DNA of 64,000 nucleotides from Blasia pusilla. Lineage: Eukaryota. The DNA lies in NCBI GenBank assembly GCA_050084515.1, contig CM114271.1, positions 6,820,001 through 6,884,000 on the forward strand, read 5' to 3'. Positions within the stretch are counted from its first letter, which is position 1, and every line of letters starts with the position of its first letter. The position numbers were made by a program, and so were the translations under genes. Shown here piece by piece: positions 4,613 to 40,639 of the stretch. Under the pieces are notes generated by a model. That model was not told where the DNA came from. It searched no databases and saw only the letters and a program-made list of their open reading frames with translations.

Positions 4613-7600
4613 TGTCGTGTGCATACACATAGCTACACAACATACATTGCTGGTCACATCCACACCACACAACACCAATCTTCCCCATACACGGGTAGAT
4701 CCACACATGTATAGAAATCAACTCATACATATACATGGAGATCACAAAACCGCCCCCTTCGTTGGCGGTTGGATCCCCCTAACTCCAGATAGAAAATATC
4801 ACATCTCTCTGACATGACCTACTGCCCTATACACATCTCGGACATATCAATCGTCCCGTGGGAACTACATCAATAAGGGGGGTCAAACATGACATATGCC
4901 ACCCTCGAGAACAACCATCAGATACCAACATGGTGGTTGCACCCCTCGCAGATCCGCACAACATACACCTCAAGCCTGCATGTACCACTGCCAAGCTCGG
5001 ATCCAATATCCCGTCCACGCTTGGAAGGTGACATGGCACATAGTTGTGCACATGATCCTTCCAAACCATACCATCCCGTCCCTCTAACATGAGGACTCTG
5101 GTTGGTAATATCTCGCGCACACGTAGGATCGTGGGCCCTGCAGTGACATCTAGCATCATGGGTGTCGCCTCCTGTAAATACACGTAATCTCTAGGATGAA
5201 ACCTCATAATCCTTGGACGATAACCTCCTCCACGAATGTTTGCATACCTCAATATATCCCTATGCTGAGCAATAGCTAAGTTCTCAAAGGCCATGGGCAT
5301 AACTTTATGAAAAATCTCTGCCCTCTGAGAACACGCTTGTATCCACACATTTGGATCATCAAGATCTAACACCTCTGCCATGTTACGTCGAATAGCTGTA
5401 GGTAAATGTGGCTCTCTCCCAAAGAGTAAAAAGTACGGTGAAAATAACGCCAAGGATGCCTCTCAACTAAAGCGATGACCTATAGCCAACCATGCCAACT
5501 GTAGGTCCCACTCCCTCAACTGTCCCCGCTACAAGCCATACTTGCGCAATCCTCTCTTCACAGTCTGTACTACTCTCTTTGCCAACCCATCCGCCTCAGG
5601 ATGATCTCTGGACGTGGTGCGGTGATCTATCAATGCCTGATCAGGCAAGGCGTGAAACTCTCCCCTAAACTCGGTACGCTGGTCAGTCAACACCTCCGCC
5701 GGTGCACCAAAGTGAGTAAGCACACGATCTAGAAACGCATAAGCCGTTCCCTCGTTTTCCTTGTCCGATAGTGCCACCAACTCTATCCACTTGGAGAAAT
5801 GCTCCACCATGACCAACACGTATCTATGATGACGCCCCATCAATGGCAAAGGTCCCGCAAAGTCTAAACTCCACCGATAACCTAAACCCATAATCGGAAA
5901 AGGATATAACTGCGGAGTGGGAGCATTGAAGGATACTCCCCATGTGATAACTCCACAATTCCTGCCTCCAACAAGTCTTGACTCCTGCTCTGAATCAAGG
6001 CTTGCTCTATATTAGAATACCTGTTAGATCGACGAAAGATCGACGTATCACTAGCCAACTCAATACGTATCCCGACACCCTTCAGCGTACCCAAATCTCT
6101 CATACTGAAGGTAAAACAATTGACATGCCTTCTCAAAAACCTATGAACTCGCCGTCGCTCTCCTCCTATCAATTAGAGACCTATCATAGGCTCCCAAGTC
6201 TCCATCGTGACCTCACTCAGAGAGGACACAACTTCCGACTTTGGTTGCTATGTGGCAACCCTATCCACCTCTGCAACAACCTCTCCACTCTGACTTCCTA
6301 CACCATGCTCCAGATCCAAAAAATGAACATGTGTTTGCTCTGGCCGCCTTTGCACTATCCGCTCGAACAACGTCCGTGGAATTCCATGGGTGCCTATCTC
6401 TCCTCGTCCCGCCCCCAGCCAATGCCTGTATAGACCCTGCAGGCAATGCTCTAAGTCGTGGACGTGACGACATGGATAAGACTCACATTCGTCTCTTCTC
6501 AGACATACCTAGGCTCACTAACCATGTGAGACATTTGCGGTCTATCGCTTGCCCCAATACCCGTCTCCGTGATGCCTTAGTCATATCTAGCACTGCCCTA
6601 GTACCCGTAGCGAACCCCATGGCGCGCTAGCGCTCATGTGCCATAGGCTCCTCCAATGCTCGGGTCACCTCATCCCAAACCATGCTTGGCCCTCCCTGAC
6701 AAAAGGCATAGGATGTTGGGAAGCTCACCAATGTAGATAAGGCTGCCCTCAACTCCCCCACCCTATTGGATATCACCAACGATGGTCTATCATCACGGGT
6801 CACCATCTAAGATTGACACCTTGAGCCCAAAATAGCATCCACTATGAGATGTGGTGCTCTCTGAACTCCATTGTATGCTCGACTCAATACCTCTGATAGT
6901 ACCAGGTTCGTCCACCACAGTCATGGAAGGTGGGCGTGTGATCCAACTCTCGTTGCATCTAACAACACAGCAATTCCTAACTAGGACCTCACTTGATGTA
7001 TACTCGTCATCACACGTGCACGAGTGTCTCCCAATAACGACACATTCTCCAAAATGTGCGTCGGATAACATGCATGACTCTCTTGCAAGTGTGATACCCA
7101 CAATTTTTTACTTTTGAAGATTTACATCTTTTTATTTAAAGAAGACTTGTGTATACATTATGATTTTGATATTATGGTTGCGTAGTAGAAAAATGAGTGA
7201 GATTGAAGTGAATCACGAAGCTCCAAGGACAAGGCAAAGAGGTGGAAAAATCAAGGATTTGCCTTAGAGGAGAGGAAAATGCAGTAACGAAGTCTAAAGA
7301 CCCAGCGCGAAGCTTGGAAAAGACAACGAAGCTCTGTTAAGAACTTGTGTATGAAGTGCTTCGCTCTTGAACAAAGCATGATGAAGAAGAAGAGGAAGAA
7401 GCACTTCACTCTTGAACGAAGCACAAAGAACGAAACCCTTGGAACAACAGCGAAGAATGGAGTGCTTCGTCCTCAAAGGAAGAGCTTCCGAGGTTCAGAC
7501 TTCGCAGCGAAGCGAAGCTAAGACTAGAAGTGCTTTCAAGCGGCACACAGTCAGAACAGTTAGACTGGGAAAAGGCGCAACTTTTTGTATCAAATAGGAA

Positions 7601-8261
7601 GTTAGTACAGTTACGCTCCGCGGACTCATAGGGATCCCAGGAAAAGAGAAGAGCACCATAGATCTAGGTAGTTACAAATGTTGAAGAGACACCAGCTTCA
7701 TCAAGAACACTTCGAATCTTTGGAACACTCATACTACAGAGAGTATTTAAGAAGCATGAAAGTAACTATCATCATCATTCTCTTACGAAGTCCTCATGCT
7801 GTAGGAATGGTCCGAGCAATGGAGTAGTACCCTCTCGTGCTTGTATATACTTCTGAAGCTTTCTCATTCTTGATGGAGTAGTAAAGCACTCATTCCTTCA
7901 TTCTAATGTGCGATGCTTATGTCTGAGTATTCTTTTTGGGTCTGCAGAGAAATATGGCTTGGGAAAGCCATATTCCTCCCTTATATAGAGTTGGGAAGAG
8001 CCAAAAGGCTCTTCCCCTAAAAATAGCTATCGTCTTGGTAACTTGCGCCCACACATTACCAAGGGCGGATGACCTGCTCAACAAGTCACCCGGATGTGAA
8101 TGACCTCAGCAGGAATGTTATGAGAAACGATGTTCTTGATACAACGAACCTATCCTCAACCTCATCCGACACCTCGAGACAAAGTTACACTCAAGACAAT
8201 CCGGTGGCTCCTATGCCCTATCCACGATAGATCTCGGCCTATCGGCTACTCAGATGTGACA
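4613..8261 (-). mobile_element. Gypsy-type retroelement with integrase + PHD finger, internally deleted; A-internal-B architecture
   Basis: Element-strand ends are TGTCACATCTGAG (8261) and ...ACGACA (4613), with a 5-bp TSD AAAGG at 4608-4612 and 8262-8266. It contains a pre-RT fragment (5882-6172), an integrase core (5529-5891) and a C-terminal PHD finger (4827-4965). The 5' block A and 3' block B match the repeats of the element at 36270-39216. Confidence 0.85.
4827..5891 (-). pseudogene. Gypsy integrase (DDE core) with C-terminal PHD finger, disrupted
   Basis: ORFs 5529-5891 (WSLDFAGPLP...VLTDQ...HPEADGLAKR) and 4827-5453 (SPYFLLFGREP...CMLC...GWHMSCL...CPRC), separated by stops/frameshift. 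Confidence 0.85.
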
Positions 8262-9666
8262 AAAGGCATAGGTACTCATGAGGATAAGAGCAAGGCAAGC
8301 AAGGTTTGAGACCTTGGAGCCAAGCGCCAAGTTAAGGGCGAGAAGCAAGGAAGATGTGAGTAGTCAGGATGGGCAAAATGCCATATGACTAGTCATGAAA
8401 CATGATAGGTGAAAAAAAAACCAGAAGACGCCAAACGTGGAGTTAGTATGAGTGGTATTCATAAGACACATAAAGTGCGGGTCTAAGATCTGAAATGTGT
8501 GTTGAGAGCGTGGAGTTACATAATCTACAGGAAGCCTCCGCCAAGCCATCTTAATGGATAACTAGCAAAGTTACACAAAAAAAAACTTATCTATCCATAG
8601 GACGTAATTGTTCCAACAAGTCTAGACATGCCATCTCGCATCCGTTCTCGTAACGTGGCTCGCATCCCTATTGTAACCCTTTGCCTTGTCTTCTTCCCTC
8701 CTACACGGGCCCATGCAGCCCGCACCCTACTCGCACAAGCTAGATGTAGCCTGCACAAGGTGCACCCATTTTTTTTAAATAATCTTTTTTCAAAAAATTA
8801 TTTAATAAAGAAAAAGAAAAAGAGATGTAGCAAAGCGCATCTGGATGTGGGCGGTCGGGCCCCCCAGGACATGTCTATCCCTAGGGCGACCATAAGTTCT
8901 TGGACATGAACAAAGCGCGTGCAACTCTAATAGCTATTCCATTGTCAAAGAGGGACAATGGGGTAGGTGGGGTTTCCGTGGAGAACCCTAGAAGTACCTT
9001 TAGGAGAGGGGGGGGCACACTCTTCCTCCCTACCGATTCAAGTCTTTGAACCAAGAACTAATCATGATGCTTATTTTGTCGCATTTCAGGTCAGAATTCA
9101 AGAAAGGTAACATCACATTTGAGCCTTGTAAGACAAATCCTTTCGATCATTTGTTTCATATCATTTACCATCCATATGTCGAGCACAAGTCATATGTGCA
9201 TACTTTCCTTAAATCTAATTGAGTGTAGTCTTGAAAAATATGACTTGTCCTCGAACCCTATTGGAGAAAGTTTGCAAACCCAAAGTGACTAATAATTTAG
9301 TTATAGCACATAAATTATGACCCTACGGAGTCGCTGTTGTGAGTCGTAGAAATGATCATTTCTTGGAGTTGATGTTGCTAATCAATCATCAAAGGTTTAG
9401 GGTGACGATGAGTGGTAGATGACATTTGATAAGAGGCAGAGTATCGTGCATTCCATAAATTGCTTTGCACAACATGAAATCACAAAGAATTCGCTCATCA
9501 AGATGATTTCACTAGGAGATAGCAATACTTCAAAGAGCCTCCGGGTCTAATTCTAATTTGGAATCTCTTTACATTACTATCTGTGGAGCCATCTTGATGT
9601 AGGAGGCCACCTAACACCAGCCCTTCGCATTATGTTGCACGGTAGGTAAGAATAGATATACCAACG

Positions 9667-9856
9667 GTGGGAAGAAACTTAGCTTTGCATACATGTCCTT
9701 CAATCTTTGTGAAGTGGTGATGGGAATGCACCACCTTCACCAAAGACCAGGAAGAACACTGACGTGGGAAAAACTTAGCTTTGCATATATATCCTTTAGT
9801 CTTTGTGAAGTGGTGATAGGAGTGCACAACCCTCATCAAAGACCAGGAAGAACTCT
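9667..9856. repeat. Tandem duplication, ~97-bp unit x2
   Basis: GTGGGAA(G)AAACTTAGCTTTGCATA...CAAAGACCAGGAAGAAC.CT occurs at 9667 and 9764. Confidence 0.8.
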
Positions 9857-11004
9857 ACTACCCACTCTGACGCTCCACTGTCCGGGAGTCAACAGTAGGA
9901 GTCGAACATATTTCCAGACCTGCCCTCAATTCAGGCATTTTGGATGGGAGTTAGCCAAGGGTTAGGTTAACAAAACTAGTCTTACCCATGGAATCAAACA
10001 TGTTTTTAAGCCCACAAATAAAGAGAAGTGCTTGCAAATCAAGAAGGCACTCTCCAAGCTCAAGGATATAAACCTTACGTCTCTCCTTCACATCCTAATT
10101 CACCATCTTGGTGAACCGTGAAATATCTACCCAACTCGTTTAGTACCCCCTTCCTTTACCCTCACGCGCGGGTGAGGTACGTTCCTCCTCGCCTGTCATG
10201 CCAGCATGTCAAAGGAAAGTCCTGGATTCGTATGAATCACAGCCCGATAAACTGCACTCGGGATGGCAGCAGATTACTTGGGTGTGATGGACGAGCTTGC
10301 CTGCACTAAATTCCGTGTGTGTACCGGAAGCATTTACTCAACGGGACTATCCCAAATATATGGTGCGAGTTAATACCCATAAGGAAGCCCAGGGACCTCC
10401 ACTGGCACTCTGATCCGCAATTCAGCACCAAGAATTTTGAGTGGGCAATTCCCGTCCCTTACACATCACCTACAGATGAGCACGCCTCACGCGCAGTGAA
10501 AATGACCGTGAGGTAGATTTTGTAGTGGACGAGAAGGACTTCAGAATGATGCACTTAAACCTTGACACGAGAATCCAATCCGAAAGCGGGGGCAAGTAGT
10601 GAAAACTGTAGAAACCCTGAAAAGATTCATGATCAGAAAACAAGATCAAAATGTGTGGACTTGCTAGTCCCAATTTACCATTAAACTGTCCCAATTTAAC
10701 AGGACGCTACTGAACTTCTCACGGATCTGTAGCGAACACTAGTTTTTTGACTCGATTCCATGACGTGAACTACAGGCCGGCGGCAAATGTTGCAACGCCA
10801 GAATCGAGACCTGGTCGACAGCCGAAAGACCCCTGGTCTAATTGACGGGGAGGTTACTCTTCTCCCCACTGCACTCAGATTATACAGATCTGCCCGCCGA
10901 ACATAGCTTCCTGTCTATCGAGCACAGAAAATCCCGTGCTCTTCGACGAAAAGTTCTGCATCTACGATGCTGCTGCTCAGCCATATTTGTCCGACTTTCA
11001 CTAT

Positions 11005-11301
11005 TTACTCGGAGGCTTCCTCCTCGGCACCGTCAACCCTGTTGTGCTTCTTCGCGTACCTCTGATTCCTCAGAAACTTAGGGTCCATCTGAATAACAAC
11101 CACCAAATGCACAAATGTGAATTCAAGGCTCTGCAAAAGAGTTACTCAGAAGTGAACAACCTGTTGAAAAATCAGGGTAACTGAAACGAAAGAGCTCACC
11201 CCCTTCCTTGAGGAGTACTTGTGCTTCTTGGGCTTCTTGATACCATTCTTGTGGGCCTTGTACGACTGGTTGTGGGCTGTGTGATTCTTAGACTTCGCCA
11301 T
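11005..11301 (-). CDS. RPL29: 60S ribosomal protein L29 (eL29), 61 aa; CDS exons 11200-11301 and 11005-11088
   Basis: Manual translation gives [61 protein letters not shown], with a phase-0 GT-AG intron at 11089-11199. A probable 5'UTR intron lies at 11307-11800 (GAG|GTGAG...TTTTAAGCAG). Confidence 0.97.
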
Positions 11302-11873
11302 TGCACCTGCTTAAAAAAAATAAAATTATAAGGACGAAAACAGACTTTCGGCAAATCCCACTGCTTTTAAAGAAAGGAACACTCAAGTAGTCCAGAGATA
11401 TCTTATGGCGACCGCAGACAAAATCACAAAGTCTCCCGGGGTAACACAACAGAAAAAACAGCAAGTATCCTGTTGGAGAACTTCACAACCAGAATCCTCC
11501 AAAAAACGGCGATTCAAGTCCAACAAGCATTCCAAAGCAGTCGAAAAGGCTGCGAAAACCTAAGGGACTCAAACACACTTAACCAAAGCGCACAAACGAA
11601 ATACAGGGACTACTCACATAAGCTCGCTCAGCTTCTTCCGAGCGAGTAAAGAGGTGAGAAAAAATGCCCGTCAACACTAAGGACTAAGACGCAATCAACA
11701 ACAGCCTGAAAACAGGCGACTGACTCCTCGCCTAGGTTCGACGGCATGCACATTACGAAATTGCGAAGTTTGAGAACGATGATCCGGGCCAGGCTCTCAC
11801 CTCGACGCTAGCAGCAGGTGGATACCCTTCAGAACAACGACGTAGAAAAGAGAAAAGCTGGTGGTGGCGATTG

Positions 11874-27913: not shown

Positions 27914-29819
27914 CGTAGTCAACATGCTCCGCATAGTTTCTTTTACTCATTTAATACTTTTCAACCGGCCACGTAGTCACATACGACTCTTTTCTACCTT
28001 TTAAAATGGTGTACTTTGCACCTTTTACCTTGTATAAAAAAATTATATTTTAGTCCAATGCTCTTAAGGACTGCTTTTTCAATATGTTGTAGTTGGTGTC
28101 GAATTTTACATTGTAAAATAAAATGATCTTATATCAAAAGAGACGTCATTAGAATACGCACACGTGTCAAACCTTCCTCGAAATTACTTTATTAAAAAAG
28201 TAGTGGCAATATCTTCACCTTTGAGACGGGCCTCCGAACCAATTTTAATTTGAGATCTGCCTATTATTTTCCATTTCCTAGACTGTCATGCCTATAGGAT
28301 TGAGGGTATCCACTTCTATGATTTTTTTTCTTAACCGTACATAAAAGGTTAACCAATTTTATTTTTTTATTTTTTTGGGGTCAAAAGCCAGGGAAGACAT
28401 ACACATTGAAGGATAGAGGAGCGGAACAATCGATAGGGAGAGAGGGGACAAAACGCTTCGTCCCTCCCACATTTTTCACTTTCCCTTCTTCTCTCGAGAG
28501 GCTAAGATATTAGGGTTAGAATGGAGTGATCCCTCAATCTACATACACAACCATCATTGTATAACATATCTCATTATCATATACACACATACATATACTA
28601 GTATAAAATATATCATCATCATATAAAGAAATCACATAATCAGATGGGAAACGAATCACTTTTTGAATGAAATTGAGCCAAATCCATTGTCAACGCGAGG
28701 GAATCAAAGTTCAATGCATATCATCCACATCCGTCCCTAGTCTATTCTTGAAGTCCCACTTATGGAAAAATGAGTCTTTCCAAACCTTCCCTTGGGATAT
28801 ACCATCTTTATATGCACATATATCACCTCAACCTACTTAGTAGATTTCTAACAAATTAAGAATTGTGAGAAGATTTTAAGGGTGATCGATGGAGAAAGAT
28901 TGCCAAGGGAGGCTAACATATCACTCCTACCCTCTCCATACCTATCTAGACTCTTAACCTCTCTATCAAGGCATATCATGATACTACAAATATTGTGATA
29001 ATTGTTGTGCACATACATATCATTACACAAAATACTTCATTATCACATACACATAACATACACCAAAAAATTACCACATAACACATGACATGAATATGTA
29101 CATTATCACATAAACAACCGTGGAATCTTCTCCTGGATGGTGGTAGGGTCCTTGCAACCCCAATGGTCAATCGTCATGTAGAAAGTAATATGCATCTTTT
29201 TGGTGCTAAGATCAAGAGAGGAGTGCTCACTTCCCCCATGGTTAGTGACGTATCTTCGATCCATGTCACTCTAACTCAACAATGATCATATAGAATGCAC
29301 TATGTATATTTCGGACATAACCATCATCACTAAAGAATCTCATCCAAGGGTGGCGTCAAATATGCCATTATGCCACCTTCGAGATCAACCATCACAAACA
29401 AATATAGTTGAAGCTCCTTGTTGATCCACACATCATGCACCTCGACCAATTTCAATCATCACCAACATCGGTTCTATTATATAATCCACGTTAGGAAGGT
29501 GACATGACATATAGCTATGTGCATAGTTCTTCCACATCATACCATCATGGCCAAAATCAAGACCCTTTATGGGAAAATCGTTCGCCATCTTTGAAAAGTG
29601 AAACCTGCAACACCCAAAGTCTATGATATTCTCTACTATATGAACAAAAATATTAATGATCAAACCTAAAAATCCCTTAATGATATCTACCTCTTCAAAG
29701 TATTGCATAACTGAACCTATCATGATTTTGAGAAATAGCTAGGTTCTCAAATATTATGGGCATTTCTCACCAAAAAAGCGATGGCTTTGATTCTACAAAC
29801 CAACTTGGTGTGTGTGAGT

Positions 29820-32800: not shown

Positions 32801-35800
32801 TGGTTGGTTTGGAGACAAAGAGTGGATTCCAATATAAATTTCAATACCTCTTAAAGAGAAAAATATGGAAGACTTATGTGTTATGAGATAAACATGTATG
32901 ATGCCAATCTACATGGTAAATCTTGGAGATTCATAGTGTGATGACTTTGGGACATGGTTGGATATTTCCATCTTTACGGGAATCCTTAAAACTTCCAAGA
33001 GAAGAGCTCCATGAGATTTTGAAACAATCTTTTACAAAATTCTTACATTTTTATTATTATAAGTAGGGACAAGTAAAAGGGCTCTCCACTTGGTGCATAA
33101 CTAAGTATGGATTTCCTCTTTCCACTATTTAATACTATAAATATGTCTCATAGAGTGGGATTCATGCTAATATGAATGATCTCATTCCTACTAGTTGGGG
33201 AAGTGGAAGGAGAGAAGTTTGCAAAATGAAAATGGAGGAGGACTATGGAGGAGGAGATGGAGGGACATTTACAATTTTGCTTGTAACTATTTTCCAATGT
33301 GCTCCAATTTTTTCAATCGAAGGCCCAACGTGTTCATTTTCTCAAGCTTGAACTTTGGGGTCTTCTATTTTCCACTTAAGATGGAATTTTCCAAAGTTCT
33401 TGGGATCTATGGACCTCCTTCTCTCCTAAATATGCTAATAGATTCCTAAATAAAATTTCACACATAGCGCTCTTCTTAAAGTGTGATACCGGATTCCCAT
33501 CACTTTAAGGGATTCCTCTTGCTTTTCTCAATCTTTTGATACAGTGTGGGCACAACATTTCCAACTCATTCCCTCATAGTAGTTATCGGTAGGTAGCTCA
33601 CTTTCTGATCACATCCTTTTTTTTGGTGTTTCTAATTTCTTCATAACTTTCTCATCGAGTATCGACTTTGGGCATGTTTGGTCTTGTTTAGATCGTCTTG
33701 AAGAGCTCATTCTTTTCATACCAATAAGTTTTTTTTTATTCCTTGTTTGTAGGCGTCAATTTTGTATATGGGTTTTCTTTAGATCAATTCCTCTCAAACG
33801 TCTTCCTTGCTCTTTCAACTCTTTACCTTACTATTTTGCTCCTACATACGTTTGCTATCTCCTTAAGGACATTAAAGATTCATATTCTTGAGCCACTTAC
33901 TTCGATACCATATATGTCACTTTACTCTTTCAATTGCTTTTTATGTTTCTTAAAGTAACTTTCAATCATAAACTCATCGTGGCCTAATCTTATTCTCTCC
34001 ATCTAAATATCTTTTGGATGGATTCCACTACTTTTGTTATGGTCGTTACCCTCATGCTTTCTCAAACTCACCTTTCATATGTCTTCTCTTCTCTTTGATG
34101 GCTTTGCCTAACTTTGCTTCTATGGCATCAGAGATGGAGTTGGATTTATATCCATCTACTTGCTTCTTTGGTTTTGCACGCCCTCCTACAATCATAACCT
34201 CTCTCCTTCGTTTCCCTCCTTATCGTAGATCTCACCATTTTCCTCTAGATACTAATACACCCATTACACTCTCTACATTTCTTCAAGATTCTCCTCTTCT
34301 CCCCTCTTCATCTCTTCCTATTGAGCCTAATCTTGATCAATTATTACAAAATCCTACTACTTTGCTATCCTCACATATCTCAACTCTATCCTTGCTTCTA
34401 ACTCCCATCTATTCGACCCTTATCTCCCCTCTTCCTCCTCCTCCTCCGGATCCTTCTCCAACCTACTTACCCCCTCTTCGTTCGTACGAAGAGGGGGATC
34501 AAAGGTTGGAGAAGGTGGTGATGCGTCAACTTTTATGGAAGACTATACAATGGATCTTGACTTGGAGCTTGACTTGGAGGTTTTCACAAGGGCTATTCTT
34601 AATACTCCTCATTTATCTGCAAACAGGCTATCAGGGGATGGTTTTTTAGCACCTCCACCATTGCTTTATCTGGGTAGATTCAGCAAGTGGCTTTGCCTCT
34701 CTATATAACATGTGTGCACATATTACGGCACGTCATCTCCCATTCTCTATCTCAAGGCTCTTAGGGGTTTATCGTGTGTTGGCTATAGATAAGCCTCCTT
34801 CAAGTGTCCTCCCTTTGCTAGTGGAGAGGATTTATACCGCTTGGTTAGTCGATCCCTATGCTTACAATTTTATCCTCATTTTAGTGCCCACTTATTTCTC
34901 ATTAATTTAGAGTGGCAACCCTTGGTGGTTGTGAGGCTATGGTGCATGGGATTCGCTCCACTCTTGATATTCATCCAAAGTGGATGGCAATTCAAGTCGA
35001 TGTGGCTAACGTCTTTAATTATTATCTCGTGCGGCCATCTTTGAGGAGTTATGCTATGCATGAGGATAACTTGTGAGTCTCATTCTATTTGTCTGATCCT
35101 TCTATATATGCCTATAATACGCCCTTTATCTATTCTCATCATGCTACTTCCGGGGAATATAGTATTCTCCAATCAACTTGTGGCCCACGTCAAGGTGACC
35201 CCATGGGTGGCCCACTCTTTACAATTGCATATTTTTGTGCCCTTCAAACATCACTCCAAGAATTTCTATCTTGTCTTTTCCTTTTTATTGTTGATGATAT
35301 TCACATTATAGGTCCTCTTTCTAAAGTGGTTCCCACTTATACCCATTTTGTGGAGCAACTCTCTTTCTTAAACCTTTAACTCCAACCTAGTAAATGTGGG
35401 GTATGGTCTCCTTCATACCTTCCCTCAACATTCACCATGCCTACTTCTGATTTTTTCATCTGCATTGAAAGGGTTAGGGTTCTTGGGGTCCTAATTGGCT
35501 TCATCGACTATGTCTCGGAGTTGTTGGATGAGGCCCTTTTGAAAGATGTAGAATTCAAATAGCTTCATTTGTTACCTCATCTAGGGGATCCCCAAGTGGC
35601 TTATGGGATTCTCTCCAAATGTTTTCTACGACGTCCTTCCTACCTTCTTCGCACTTGTACTCCCACTTCAACGTTCTTACATCAATTGGCCTCTTTTGAT
35701 GCTTTTATCTTGGCAACTTTTGATCAACTTCTTGGCCTAAATACATTTCAGGGAGAGGATGATGTCTTGGCTTTAGGACAAGCTATCTTGCCTATTTCTT

Positions 35801-36269
35801 TTGGAGGGGTAGGGCTTATCTCCACAGTCGCATCTGCTCTAACAGCTTTTTTGGGGAGTTGGGTGTTGGTACCGCCGATTATGGCTTCAAGGTTTCTCCA
35901 AGGAGATACACCTATCTTGATTGATCATTTCGCCCATGTAGAGGAGGGGGACATATTAGTTCAACAAAAATTGAGATTTGCTCGAGTTTTTTTTCCTCTC
36001 GCTATACAAGCAATTTTACCCCCTTTCAGTCAATTGATTACTGAAGGGCTTGATCGACTTCAAGAGCATATCTCAGAGAATTTGCACCAAATCAACTTTT
36101 CCAGGATTCTCTCTAAGGCATCTTGTGATGCTCATTGAGCTCTTATTCATTCATGTGCGCGTACAGGGGCGGGGGCATGGCTTACTGCAAATCCTCTTAT
36201 TCTTCTATTTTTCTTCCTCAAAGTATATTCTCGATAACTTTGTGGTTACGCCTTGAACTTCCTCATCCT

Positions 36270-39216
36270 TGTCACATCTGAGTAACCGATAGGCCGAGAT
36301 CTATCGTGGATAGGGCGTAGGAGCCAGCGGACTATCTTGAGTGTAACTTTGTCCCATGGTGTCAGATGAGGTTGAGGATAGGTCCATTGTGTCAGGAACG
36401 TCCTTTCTGACAACTTTCATGTTGAGGTCTTTCACAGCCGGGTGACTTGTTGACCAGGTCACCCGCCCCTGGTAACCTGTGTGCACAGGTTACCAAGGAG
36501 AGGGCTACTTTTAGGGGAAGACCCTTTTGGTTCTTCCCAACCCTATATAAGAGAGGAAGATGGCTTTCCTAAGCCATCTTTCTCATGTTGGGCCGTTGGA
36601 GCACCTCCCTTGTATGTGTGTGAGATAGGACTAGGGTGCTAGCGTCCGGATTCCTTGATAGCACAGGATGGACGAGGCTCGATATGTCGATGTAGATTGA
36701 GGAGTGGAGTTTTAGGCCGGGTGTGGCGTTTTTACTACTCTTTATTTTTACATGAGAAAGATGTCAGGGGGCTGGTGGGAATTCGTTGTTTTAAGGTAGG
36801 CAAGCGAGTTGCCTTGGTCGGGAGCCCGTGGAGACGTTGGTTGGGGTCGTATTTTTCATTTTTCTGTTCGAAAGGCCGTGGGCGGAAGCGCTGTCCATTT
36901 TTCTCAGATTTTGCTGGTGCGGATCGATGGGAGACAACAGTAGGGTGTAGCGCAGGTTGTGACGGTAGGTATAGCGTCGTCTAATAGCGGGAATGTCGGG
37001 ATTTAGTAGGAAGGAGAGTTAGGGCTTGCAGCCGTCGGGGGCGCTGACGGGGCGTTTAGGTCAGCGCGCACGGACGGGCGGATGGAGGACAGCGGGCGGA
37101 AATGGCGACGGCGCGCCTCCCCCGCGCATTTATTGCTCAGCCCAAAAGTTGGGGAGGCCCATAGGGGTGCGGGCCAGGCTCCCCTCCCCCGCTTCTCACA
37201 TTTACTACTCTTTTTCTTCCCCTTTGGACGTGGTTGCGCATGGGCAACGTGGTAGGATCGAACGTGGTTGGATGGAGACGTCGTTGAGAGTCTGGATGTG
37301 GTCGAGATCAGGTTCACGTGGTCGGATAGGGTATACGTGGTAGATGGGAGCCGACCATGGTGAGTCAAGTTACATGCCGCGTGTGGGGATGGACGGAGAG
37401 GTTTGCGCGACATGATGTTTTTGGGGCGTGACAGGGCGTTGCGAGAGTTGACGATGGAGGAGCAGTGCGCATGATGCCGACAGGTTGTCCGCATCTATTG
37501 ACGGGAGGATCGACGTGTTGGTCGAGGAGAGTGTTGTGTTGCGGAGGTTGTCATATCACGTGGAGGAATGCATGTTGACGGTGCAACAGATTGGAGGGCG
37601 TGATCACGTTACGCATTCGAGTCCCTTTTCCCGCACTTGTCATGTGTGATTGAGAGTGTTGGATATCGGGTAGTAGCTGGTGCTAGGTGGGTGCAGTGAT
37701 GGTGACGAGTGTAGATTCTTTTCATATGTAGCATGTTGGTGGATATATACCGGTTGCCGAGTAGGGGTCGCGTGTATACAGATTCTTTCAGGAGCAGATT
37801 GAGTACTTGGGACACACCATATACCCGAGTGGGTTAGGCGTTCAACAAACGAAGGTAGAGGCTATTGCGTAGATTCCACGCCCTACAGATGTGAGTCGAG
37901 TCCGAGCATTTCTTAGACTTGCGAACTTCTATCGACGGTATGTCAAGGGTTTTAGTGCGATCGCAAAGTCTTTGACCTTGTTGACGAGACTTGATCAGGT
38001 CTGGTTGTGGGGAGATAATCAGGAGCGAGCATTTCAGGAGCTCAAGGACAAGTTGACGTCCTCACCCATTTTACAGAGACCGGTTAGGGGTCGCCCATTC
38101 CAATTACATACGGATTGGAGCATGTTGGGTCTAGGAGCAGTGCTTACTCAGAGGGATGACGTGGAGAGGGAGTTGATGTGGCGCCACATCATCACGCTCG
38201 GACGGTGGATCCGAGCTTGGCAGTGGTACCTGCAGGCTTGAGGTGTATGTTGTGCGGATCTGCAAGGGGTGCAGCCACCATGTTGGTATATGATGGTTGT
38301 TCTCGATGGTGGCATGTGTCATGTCTGACCCCCCCTCTTGATGTGGTTCCCACGGGACGATGGATGTGTCCAAGATGTGTATAGGGTAGTAGGTCATGTT
38401 AGATAGATGTGATATTTTCTATCTGGAGTTGGGGGGATCCAATTGCTAGCTAGGGGGCGGTTGTGTGATCTCCATGTATATGTATGAGTTGATTTTTGTA
38501 CATGTGTGGATCGACCCGTGTGTGGGAAAGATTGGTATTGTGTGGTGTAGATATGGCCAGCGATGTATGTTGTGTAGCGATATGTATGCGCATGACAGCT
38601 GTCACATCTGAGTAGCCGATAGGCCGAGATCTATCGTGGATAGGGCGTAGGAGCCAACGGACTATCTTGAGTGTAACTTTGTCCCACGGTGTGGGATGAG
38701 GTTGAGGATAGGTCCATTGTGTCAGGAATGTCATTTCTGACAACTTTCATGTTGAGGTCTTTCATAGCCGGGTGACTTGTTGACTGAGTCACCCGCCTGG
38801 TAACTTTGTCTGTGCGAGTTATCAAGGAGAGGGCTATTTTTAGGGGAAGAGCCTTTTGGCTCTTCCCAACCCTATATAAGAGAGGAAGATGGCTTTCCTA
38901 AGCCATCTTTCTCATGTTGGGCCGTCGGAGCACATCCCTTGTATGTGTGTGAGATAGGACCATGGTGCTAGCGTCCGGATTCTTTGATAGCACAGGGTGG
39001 ACGAGGCTCGATATGTCGATGTAGATTGAGGAGTGGATTTGTAGGCCGGGTGTGCCATTTTAACTACTCTTTATTTTTGTTGTGTGATCTCCATGTATAT
39101 GTATGAGTTGAGTTTTGTATAGGTGTGGATCGACCCGTGTGTGGGGAAGATCGGTGTTGTGTGGTGTAGATGTGACCAGCGATGTATGTTGTGTAGCGAT
39201 ATGTATGCGCACGACA
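36270..39216 (+). mobile_element. Gypsy-type retroelement (RT/RNase H remnant + PHD finger) with split direct repeats A1-internal-B1-A2-B2
   Basis: A1 36270-36749, B1 38460-38597, GC, A2 38600-39078, B2 39079-39216. Ends are TGTCAC...GACA, with TSD TCCT (36266-36269 and 39217-39220). RT thumb/RNase H at 37891-38175 (FYRRYVKGFSAIA...FQLHTDWS...GLGAVLTQ) and PHD at 38178-38384. Confidence 0.9.
36541..36551 (+). promoter_or_regulatory. TATA box in repeat A of the split-repeat retroelement
   Basis: CCCTATATAAG is conserved in A2 (~38870) and, as CTCTATATAAG on the minus strand, in the copy at ~7980-7990. Confidence 0.55.
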
Positions 39217-40639
39217 TCCTTCTCTGTGTGTTAGATGTGTCTAATTGTGTATGCGGTGATCTTATTGATGAAAAGGGTATCCATATTCTTTGATGTGCAC
39301 ATGGTGGAGAACGAAAGTCCATTCATGATGCCATTAGAGAGGCAATAGCATCGGTGGCTCGTACTGCATGGTACACCGTCGGGCAAGATCAGCTCCATGT
39401 CCTACCTTCAACTACATATTCAACCTCTTGTCGGAGAGTTGACCTTCTTATGTCTCAAGGTGGATTCTTGACACTAGGTGATGCGGTGGTTGCTAATCCA
39501 ACACGTTTTGACTTGGTGTGTTTAACCGCACATACCAAAGGTTCGGCGGCCAAAGCAACAGCAAGAATCAAGGAGTTAGGTCATGTTGTGGGACATATGA
39601 GTGATGGATTTATTCTTTTTACAGGGGAAGTATTCGGTCATTTACATATGTCTTTTGATACTTTCCTGAAAACATGTGCTCACCACTCCCTCGAGAATCA
39701 TCACCTTGCCCCTTCATGTAGTCATTCTCTCTCTGTAGTTACTACTTATTTTTGGTAATGCATCTCAATGTCCTTACAACATGCACAAGCCTTGCCATTG
39801 ATACGTTGTGTGGAATTGATGATAATCGTCTAATCGTCTAACCAACCACTAGTGTTCTTGTCAAATTTGTTTCATGTTATCAGTCGTGTAACTCATTGAG
39901 TTGGTGTTTGTGTTGGCTAGTTGTCATTTTTCTTTTTGCATTCTATTATGCATCTTTTACTTCTCTTTGAGGTTTGTCATTATAATAAAATGGATGGTTT
40001 TACTAGTAAACTTCTTATGCATGCATGATATATAACTATCAATGTAATTTTTTTCATTTTTAGTGAATTATATTTTAAAAAATGAATATCCTATAACTGA
40101 TTTAAAAGTAAAGAGGTACATGGCCTTCTCAAAATAAAAAAAATTCATTCTTGGTAAGAACCCACTTTGAGGAAGTCATGCTTTGATAGTGTAGATGATT
40201 TTTGAATCCCTTCTTGTACTCTTGATAAATTATGAAGAGATGCTCATTTTTTCAAGTTTTGTATTCCTCTCCGATCTTAAAAGAGAAGTAGTTATGATTT
40301 ACTCAACAGATTTTGAGAGTCAGACATCAGGACAAATATCTTTTGGGCAGGTTAGGTGGGGTAACAAACAAAGTTAGGGCGGACAGAAACATCCATCCAT
40401 GATACGCTAGTGTACTACCAAAACAACATGCACATTTAAAAAAATAAAATCTATCTTCTTGGTCGAATTACAAATTTATGCAAATAAATAAAGTATGTAA
40501 GTATTTTCTCTTCTTACCATTAGAATTATTTGATGCCATTCTTACAAAGGGAAGCCTTGGTTTCACTTTTAGTGGTGGAAAATAAGTGGATGTTTAGTGG
40601 TCCATATAACAGGTCCATATCGTGTTCATTGGTCGTGAG

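Follow-up and report, generated by a model that had tools for sequence, protein, structure and literature searches.

The window analysed here, 64,000 nucleotides of Blasia pusilla DNA (contig CM114271.1, positions 6,820,001 to 6,884,000 of the forward strand), contains a decayed retrotransposon copy at window positions 36270-39216. This copy, termed el1, is a deleted, dead member of a bryophyte Ty3/Gypsy family with an unusual order of repeats. The normal chromosomal form of the family consists of a repeat A, a primer-binding site (PBS), the internal region, a polypurine tract (PPT), a repeat B, two nucleotides (NN), a second A and a second B, with TGTCA...TGACA termini and target duplications of 4-5 bp. 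Its enzymes are of the Ty3/Gypsy type, with reverse transcriptase (RT), RNase H, H2C2 and rve integrase domains in this order, a C-terminal PHD finger and, in full-length relatives, a C5 DNA methylase. The best joint explanation of the data, to which we assign a probability of roughly 0.55, is that B-NN-A is the long terminal repeat (LTR) of this Ty3/Gypsy family and that the chromosomal copy is a circular permutation, opened at the palindrome where B and A abut.

The order of repeats was established by a family-wide census. A protein search was seeded with the integrase C-terminal/PHD open reading frame (ORF) of el2, which is, like el3, another copy in the window. An alignment of the matches then retrieved 479 relatives in metagenome contigs, from which 80 loci were kept. 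Every copy of A and B in the window and in these 80 loci was sorted by its neighbours; several loci represent the same site in different assemblies (L002 and L037; L038, L039 and L040). Ends of the form B-2nt-A-B occur 25 times, with 17 distinct downstream flanks, including that of the window. Among 82 full copies of B away from contig ends, 31 lie between internal sequence and A, 27 between A and the flank, 24 between internal sequence and the flank, and none between two copies of A. B precedes none of the 11 complete copies of A that lead into internal sequence. Neither a canonical LTR-internal-LTR copy, in either possible phase, nor the isomer A-B-NN-A-internal-B was seen. The layout is common to lineages whose integrases are only 44-71% identical, and the single-B form A-internal-B, as in el2, is found in about half of the loci.

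The two junctions of the repeats are constant. The spacer between B and A is always 2 nt long (GC, AC, GT, AT or TC), and the A2|B2 junction is free of filler and has the same length in every subfamily examined. The ends of the family read ...(G/A)A(C/T)A and T(G/A)TCA..., and thus fit the TGTNR rule that has been reported for Gypsy termini (PMC2836005, excerpt). Within one element, B1 and B2 share 80-98% identity, whereas B repeats of different lineages cannot be aligned. In L078, for instance, B1 and B2 are 97.8% identical, compared with 91.7% between L078 and its sister copy L077. Both copies of B therefore seem to be regenerated from one template in each cycle, as LTRs are. L026 and L030, which are one site in two assemblies, contain about 820 bp of tandemly repetitive sequence between A2 and B2, at about +650 to +1460 past the end of the PHD finger.

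Low-coverage sequencing runs under the same organism label provided thousands of related contigs. Diverse flanks start at 38600 and follow 38597 and 39216 in these contigs, which indicates that the start of A and the end of B are real termini of the element. Diverged contigs of the sequencing runs also bridge B1 into A2. RNA reads of other subfamilies (run X20) proceed from the end of B through two bases into TGTCA..., with loose ends at 38558, 38604/5 and 39216; their match is confined to the final ~40 nt of B, the spacer and TGTCA. Of the non-coding sequence of the family, the element ends are thus conserved best, and transcription extends across the junction. Run X20 (about 6% of the run) yielded no usable transcript starts or ends for el1. 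Skips of ~620 nt in the run alignments proved to be only alignments switching between B1 and B2 and were set aside as uninformative, and a degenerate junction pattern applied across loci was too loose to be of use. Among viral contigs, there were 11 pattern matches, and none of them was a relative.

In el1, the only copy in the window with all four repeats, the layout can be read directly. A1 (36270-36749, plus strand, 480 bp) begins with TGTCAC and is 92.7% identical to A2 (38600-39078, plus strand, 479 bp). B1 (38460-38597, plus strand, 138 bp) ends in ...TGACA and is 93.5% identical to the terminal copy B2 (39079-39216, plus strand, 138 bp), so that the element starts with TGTCA and ends with TGACA. 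It is flanked by TCCT at 36266-36269 and 39217-39220; an A precedes the left copy at 36265, and the duplication is readable as ATCCT, too, if the last A of B2 is counted. B1 and A2 are separated by the spacer GC (38598-38599), and the right end, the spacer and the left end together form the perfect 12-nt palindrome TGACAGCTGTCA (TGACA-GC-TGTCA, 38593-38604), which is the proposed integrase site. The palindrome is present once in the window, where 0.03 occurrences are expected, and a match appeared in 3 of 100 shuffles. A preliminary description, made from the letters of the window, had already reported this split A-internal-B-GC-A-B order with its lengths, TATA box, PPT-like tract and target duplication, and had recognised the B1/A2 junction as the right end joined to the left end; both observations hold. 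In the proposed reading, A1 contains the 3' part of U3 followed by R and U5, B1 is the start of U3, and the filler-free A2|B2 junction is the end of U5 joined to the start of U3.

The same description had found no PBS. A TGG-type tRNA site is indeed lacking after A1, but a self-priming site lies exactly there. In el1 this site, ACATGAGAAAGATG (36750-36763, plus strand), adjoins the end of A1 and is the exact reverse complement, over 14 nt, of CATCTTTCTCATGT (36575-36588, plus strand). The latter is the predicted RNA 5' end and self-primer; it lies 31 nt past the TATA box TATATAA (36544-36550, plus strand, A position 275) and is also the 3' arm of a local hairpin (36553-36584, an inverted repeat). 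When the sequence following A in el1 was shuffled, 0 of 2000 shuffles reached 14 nt and 15 of 2000 reached at least 10 nt. Exact complementarity of at least 9 nt (9-17 nt) adjoins the end of A in nine of the 13 elements with A1. The complementary site is located ~25-35 nt past the TATA box in eight of these nine, the exception being L002, with its longest match at A position 255. Three lineages use three different self-priming sequences, namely the 14 nt of el1, up to 17 nt in the L037 lineage (L051), and 12 nt in the L038/L066 lineage (L066). The 5' end of the predicted leaders pairs with the PBS zone in 7 of 7 minimum-energy folds (z = -3.66 for el1), a pairing that demonstrates feasibility only, because the 5' ends were picked from complementarity. 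The arrangement is that of a Tf1-type self-priming site, with the 5' end of the RNA as predicted from the sequence. TGG-containing stretches past A1 were considered by eye as tRNA-type PBS candidates (TGGTGGGAATTCG in el1, and a conserved CCTTGG... motif further on). They were rejected because they lie 25-125 nt from the end of A, while the self-priming site adjoins it.

The second priming site is located at the other repeat. The PPT of el1, AGGGGGCG (38452-38459, plus strand), adjoins the first base of B1, and the G-run ends exactly at the start of B1 in 21 of the 21 listed loci, as it does in el1 and el2. The rule that the PBS follows the 5' LTR and the PPT precedes the 3' LTR holds only in a permuted frame, in which the PBS adjoins A1 and the PPT adjoins B1. 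Since the PPT sets the left end of the cDNA (the first base of B) and the PBS sets its right end (the last base of A), the LTR of reverse transcription would be B-NN-A. The earlier view of A plus B as the complete LTR is corrected accordingly: from the positions of PBS and PPT, the unit regenerated by reverse transcription is B-NN-A.

The coding region assigns the family to Ty3/Gypsy. The search with the el2 ORF named relatives from Marchantia polymorpha, Calypogeia fissa and Sphagnum fallax, and yielded further Pol proteins of ~1,040-1,170 aa with RVT_1, RNase H, H2C2, rve and PHD. A related Pol of 1,033 aa, P0007, served as the reference for mapping remnants by blastx; its best solved relative is the Ty3 Gag-Pol 7q5b (E 9.7e-92). 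The full-length locus L037 comprises A1 (2174-2510), ~8.3 kb of internal sequence, B1 (10809-10923), GC, A2 (10926-11263) and B2 (11264-11378), and its pol domains are RVT_1 (8039-8677), RNase H (8620-8982), H2C2 (9234-9623) and rve with PHD (9521-10645; E 1.4e-12 for rve). Dozens of loci carry rve and PHD in frame immediately ahead of PPT-B1. The order RT-RNase H-integrase, the homology to Ty3, the rve domain, the TG...CA termini and a duplication in the 4-6 bp class are all features of Ty3/Gypsy elements; the two complete LTRs that flank the internal region in such elements are absent, as the 5' end consists of A only.

The mode of insertion is visible in the flanks. Target duplications are found in five of the seven elements with both ends on one contig: TCCT in el1, CATA in L037, ACTA in L008, TACA in L019 and CCTTT in el2. 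An A precedes the upstream copy in all four cases of 4 nt, and a 5-nt reading is also possible; the length is thus given as 4-5 bp. The family inserts by a DDE integrase and not by DIRS-type recombination, because target duplications are present, whereas DIRS elements lack them (PMC8969392, excerpt). No tyrosine recombinase (PF00589, Phage_integrase) was detected in the 18 ORFs of at least 90 aa on both strands of L037, nor in the precomputed domain lists of 86 related proteins. The surmise of the preliminary description that split repeats here go together with a DDE integrase, 4-5 bp duplications and no tyrosine recombinase is borne out by these results and by the rve domains of el2 and L037.

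Each step of the mechanism proposed below, including the route through a circle or joined ends, is inferred from this anatomy. Transcription would start ~30 nt past the TATA box in A1. The 5' end of the RNA would fold back onto the site adjoining A1 and prime the minus strand, as in Tf1, and the G-rich tract adjoining B1 would prime the plus strand. Reverse transcription may then yield a linear cDNA, (B-NN-A)-internal-(B-NN-A). The natural ends of this cDNA would not be the integrase ends, which would instead stand back to back inside each LTR as ...TGACA-NN-TGTCA.... It is proposed that the cDNA ends are joined, the end of A to the start of B, like a 2-LTR circle junction. Of the two palindromes in the joined molecule, the integrase would subsequently open that in the upstream LTR, and insertion with a 4-5 bp stagger would give A-internal-B-NN-A|B. 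Copies with a single B (A-internal-B) may arise from recombination between B1 and B2 or from one-LTR circles. In terms of this scheme, chromosomal copies start at the A half of the upstream LTR, the final B joins the end of the downstream LTR without filler, and each terminus next to a target duplication corresponds to one half of the internal palindrome.

Several points weigh against the proposal of a permuted B-NN-A element. Neither the circle nor the joined-end cDNA, the transcript ends or the activity of the integrase was observed. A 2-LTR circle contains two identical palindromes, and its random opening predicts the isomer A-B-NN-A-internal-B equally often, yet this form was encountered 0 times. 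The upstream LTR perhaps becomes double-stranded first, which might account for this asymmetry. The constant length of the A|B junction is unexpected for host end joining, which is usually imprecise. Furthermore, four of the 13 elements with A1, all old copies, show an exact PBS complementarity of at most 6 nt, two of the seven complete elements (L007 and L056) have no target duplication, and only two distinct elements (el1, and L037, which is the same as L002) carry all four repeats on one contig.

Two of these difficulties, the missing isomer and the constant A|B junction, would be explained by a first alternative, in which the family replicates in a DIRS-like manner. An RNA from A1 to B2 would carry the A2|B2 junction itself, B-NN-A would be only a template or splint for the termini, and the integrase would insert a linear TGTCA...TGACA cDNA (or a circle). 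Templated copying would account for the invariant length of A2|B2 more readily than repair, the isomer predicted for random circle opening is absent, and DIRS-1 has been reported to amplify via a linear single-stranded cDNA (PMC7192593, excerpt). However, ordinary strand transfers cannot copy B2 if the PBS is at A1 and the PPT at B1, no primer site was seen by eye downstream of the A2|B2 junction, and B1 and B2 look homogenised within elements, as in L078. We therefore regard this route as unlikely, while granting it some weight.

A second alternative, that the element now moves as DNA, is judged very improbable. The integrase would then be a cut-and-paste transposase acting on the TGTCA...TGACA termini, and RT, PBS and PPT would be relics. 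RT and RNase H are nevertheless conserved in polyproteins of ~1,000-2,200 aa, the PBS and the RNA 5' end change together from lineage to lineage, and the homogenisation of A1 with A2 and of B1 with B2 in each copy is not expected of DNA transposition. The suggestion draws on Ginger DNA transposons, which use a Gypsy-like integrase and have TGTNR-type termini and short duplications in common with the family (PMC2836005, excerpt).

Two further readings are hardly tenable. The first takes A alone as a canonical LTR (A1...A2), with B2 being a duplicated 3' untranslated region or flank outside the mobile unit. The logic of LTR finders would pair A1 with A2, the PBS adjoins A1, and A has TG at its start and, in elements of the L037 lineage, CA at its end. 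B2 follows A2 in 17 of 17 distinct contexts, though, the duplications flank A1...B2 and not A1...A2, and the PPT adjoins B1 and not A2. The second reading, to which we give scarcely any credence either, holds that el1 and its relatives are true tyrosine-recombinase elements of the DIRS/Ngaro/PAT type, with integrase remnants derived from something else. It appeals to the order A1-internal-B1-A2-B2, the textbook mark of such elements (PMC4157794 and PMC8969392, excerpts), but it is opposed by the in-frame rve and PHD next to PPT-B1, by the lack of a Phage_integrase match in L037 and by the target duplications, which DIRS elements do not have (PMC8969392, excerpt). Finally, a one-off rearrangement, tandem insertion or assembly artefact in an otherwise canonical AB-internal-AB family, for which the heavy deletion of el1 and its status as the sole four-repeat copy in the window might speak, is refuted by the census, since the layout recurs in 17 distinct flanks from independent assemblies and in lineages with 44-71% integrase identity, contigs and RNA reads of other runs cross the junction, and canonical copies number 0. 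The preliminary description had named a majority of canonical copies together with a unique junction as the outcome that would undo it; the opposite was found on both counts.

The combination of split repeats with Gypsy domains has a precedent. The element KnitGypsy-Dnmt3 of Klebsormidium nitens combines a DIRS-like repeat arrangement with Gypsy domains, according to the legend of Fig. 4c in de Mendoza et al. 2018 (Nat Commun 9:1341, PMC5890265). The bryophyte family resembles it in the Gypsy domain set, in the order A-coding-B-A-B and in the C5 methylase of full-length relatives. The hosts differ, as Klebsormidium contrasts with the bryophytes Marchantia, Calypogeia and Sphagnum, and the two are likened by features, not by sequence; no Klebsormidium sequence is named among the 60 hits listed by a further search for related polyproteins. 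The main text of PMC5890265, as far as accessible, gives no target duplications, junction palindrome, mapping of PBS and PPT or mechanism, and the term PHD has 0 occurrences in it. No other description of this architecture was found in the literature searched, which lay outside subscription journals, Repbase reports and supplements. The claim of a non-canonical architecture thus stands, with an order that is family-wide across diverged lineages, but it is less novel than had been assumed.

Other known systems share single features with the family. Ngaro, PAT and VIPER elements have the identical order A1-internal-B1-A2-B2, and their internal B-A junction likewise corresponds to the two termini joined (PMC4157794, PMC8969392 and PMC13465315, excerpts). 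They rely on a tyrosine recombinase and produce no target duplication, in contrast to the DDE integrase, TG...CA termini and 4-5 bp duplications of the bryophyte family. Tf1 and the Sushi-Tcn1 elements are similar in that their PBS adjoins U5 and is complementary to the 5' end of their own RNA, and self-priming has been predicted for the Tcn1 clade of non-seed plants (PMC6317226, excerpt). These elements possess two ordinary LTRs and a chromodomain, whereas permuted repeats and an integrase ending in PHD (PF00628) are present here; this comparison is based on features, without a tree.

In retroviral 2-LTR junctions and in the junctions of bacterial insertion sequence (IS) circles, two ends meet across a short spacer and form a palindrome. 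Cleavage of 2-LTR junctions by retroviral integrases has been reported, and IS3/IS30-type transposases use circle junctions as integration substrate. The retroviral 2-LTR junction is a by-product and is absent from the provirus. The bryophyte junction differs in being permanent and inherited, and it is part of every functional chromosomal copy.

The C5 methylase (PF00145) was located upstream of RT in three loci: L031 (6165-7511, E 7.1e-9, 36 bits with a cut-off of 22), L002 (6273-6881, E 4.1e-5, 23.6 bits) and L037 (5873-7273, E 0.0019). It lies between the protease region and RT in full-length loci. PF00145 is joined with RVT_1, RNase H, rve and PHD in related polyproteins of ~2,000-2,240 aa, of which many are annotated in Marchantia. 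In more distant polyproteins, the methylase is found between RNase H and integrase, so that the domain order differs among lineages. Among solved structures, the integrase PHD finger (P0007 residues 980-1030) is closest to the PHD fingers of KDM5A/B, UHRF1 and ATXR5. The PHD finger is suggested to be a reader of the histone H3 tail that replaces the chromodomain of chromoviruses.

The coding capacity of el1 is almost wholly deleted, because its remnants map only to residues 265-397 and 964-1028 of P0007. The first remnant (37780-38178, plus strand) comprises the C-terminus of RT and the N-terminus of RNase H with an in-frame stop (PF17919, RT_RNaseH_2, E 1.6e-15). The second (38184-38381, plus strand) is the C-terminal part of the integrase with a PHD finger at ~38244-38378 (PF00628, E 1.1e-10). 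Both agree with the RT/RNase H/PHD remnants noted in the preliminary description. Everything between RNase H and the integrase C-terminal/PHD remnant is deleted; el1 itself retains no integrase core and has also lost the methylase region. A G+C-rich stretch of 444 bp (36988-37431, plus strand) is not family sequence, as related contigs give a depth of 0 there in run X1 and of near 0 in X2 and X3, whereas the neighbouring family sequence is deeply covered by related contigs. It is probably foreign sequence gained by el1, either as a later insertion or as filler. The long ORFs interrupted by el1 (35077-36138 and 39294-39758, plus strand) resemble, by eye, a non-LTR (LINE-type) RT and its C-terminal region; they gave no Pfam match at E <= 0.01.

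The second copy, el2 (4613-8261, minus strand), is flanked by CCTTT (8266-8262 and 4612-4608). It consists of A positions 1-315, ~830 bp of unrelated sequence, a methylase-like remnant, the N-terminus of RT, an rve core (Pfam E 4.3e-12), PHD, a G-rich tract and one B, and no second A-B was found in it. The methylase-like remnant, the only one in the window, is homologous to Marchantia PF00145 proteins. The ~830 bp (7946-7116, minus strand) are A+T-rich with short 'gcttcg'-type repeats and stand in place of the end of A, the PBS and the 5' coding region; the homology to A breaks off at position 315, near the predicted start of transcription. A 16-nt string occurs twice in el2 (8275-8260 and 6715-6700, minus strand). 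One copy consists of the last 12 nt of the 5' flank plus TGTCA, and the other lies inside the conserved methylase-like coding region, where the blastx alignment runs across it. A match of 12 nt with the flank is unlikely to be due to chance and could reflect a homology-guided event.

The third copy, el3 (28537-29800 with approximate ends, minus strand), is an old, diverged relative with integrase C-terminal/PHD remnants. Its B-like end, ...CAACA, extends to 29003 and is followed by the spacer AT (29002-29001) and by TATCAC... from 29000; a second B-like stretch is located ~466 bp further on, and the B-like repeats are only 70-79% identical. This B-AT-A junction was the first sign that the junction of el1 is not unique.

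Current descriptions, including a paper of 2026 (PMC13465315, excerpt), regard split direct repeats as diagnostic of tyrosine-recombinase retrotransposons, and LTR-internal-LTR as the sole proviral form that results from DDE integrases. The present family breaks the link between split repeats and tyrosine recombinases, and does so in model bryophytes, where many annotated proteins of Marchantia polymorpha belong to it. It is the bryophyte branch of a kind glimpsed before in a charophyte, with Gypsy domains, split direct repeats and a DNA methyltransferase (DNMT). The present analysis contributes the census across the family, the target duplications, the site at which the ends abut with a fixed spacer of 2 nt, the self-priming PBS and an interpretation of B-NN-A as the true LTR. 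Such elements are probably mis-annotated, since a standard LTR finder would take A1 and A2 as the pair, overlook B2 and return no target duplication. The family also carries two chromatin modules, DNMT and the PHD finger.

The four-part anatomy, that is, the PBS at A, the PPT at B, the ends abutted at 2 nt and the filler-free A|B junction, turns the remark in a legend of 2018 into a testable claim on the DNA substrate of an integrase. It points to an unusual integration substrate, which has been noted once in print and never explained, and the mechanism of integration is the interesting part. A tentative extension, which we would sooner doubt than adopt, is that the obligatory integration substrate of the clade is end-joined cDNA, in the form of a 2-LTR-type circle or an equivalent, opened at an inherited internal palindrome of abutted ends. 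If true, this would bring back the old 'circle-junction' model for the integration of retroviruses, now as the regular route taken by a living lineage, and would provide a mechanistic bridge between LTR retrotransposons, the split-repeat elements of the DIRS/Ngaro type and IS-circle transposition.

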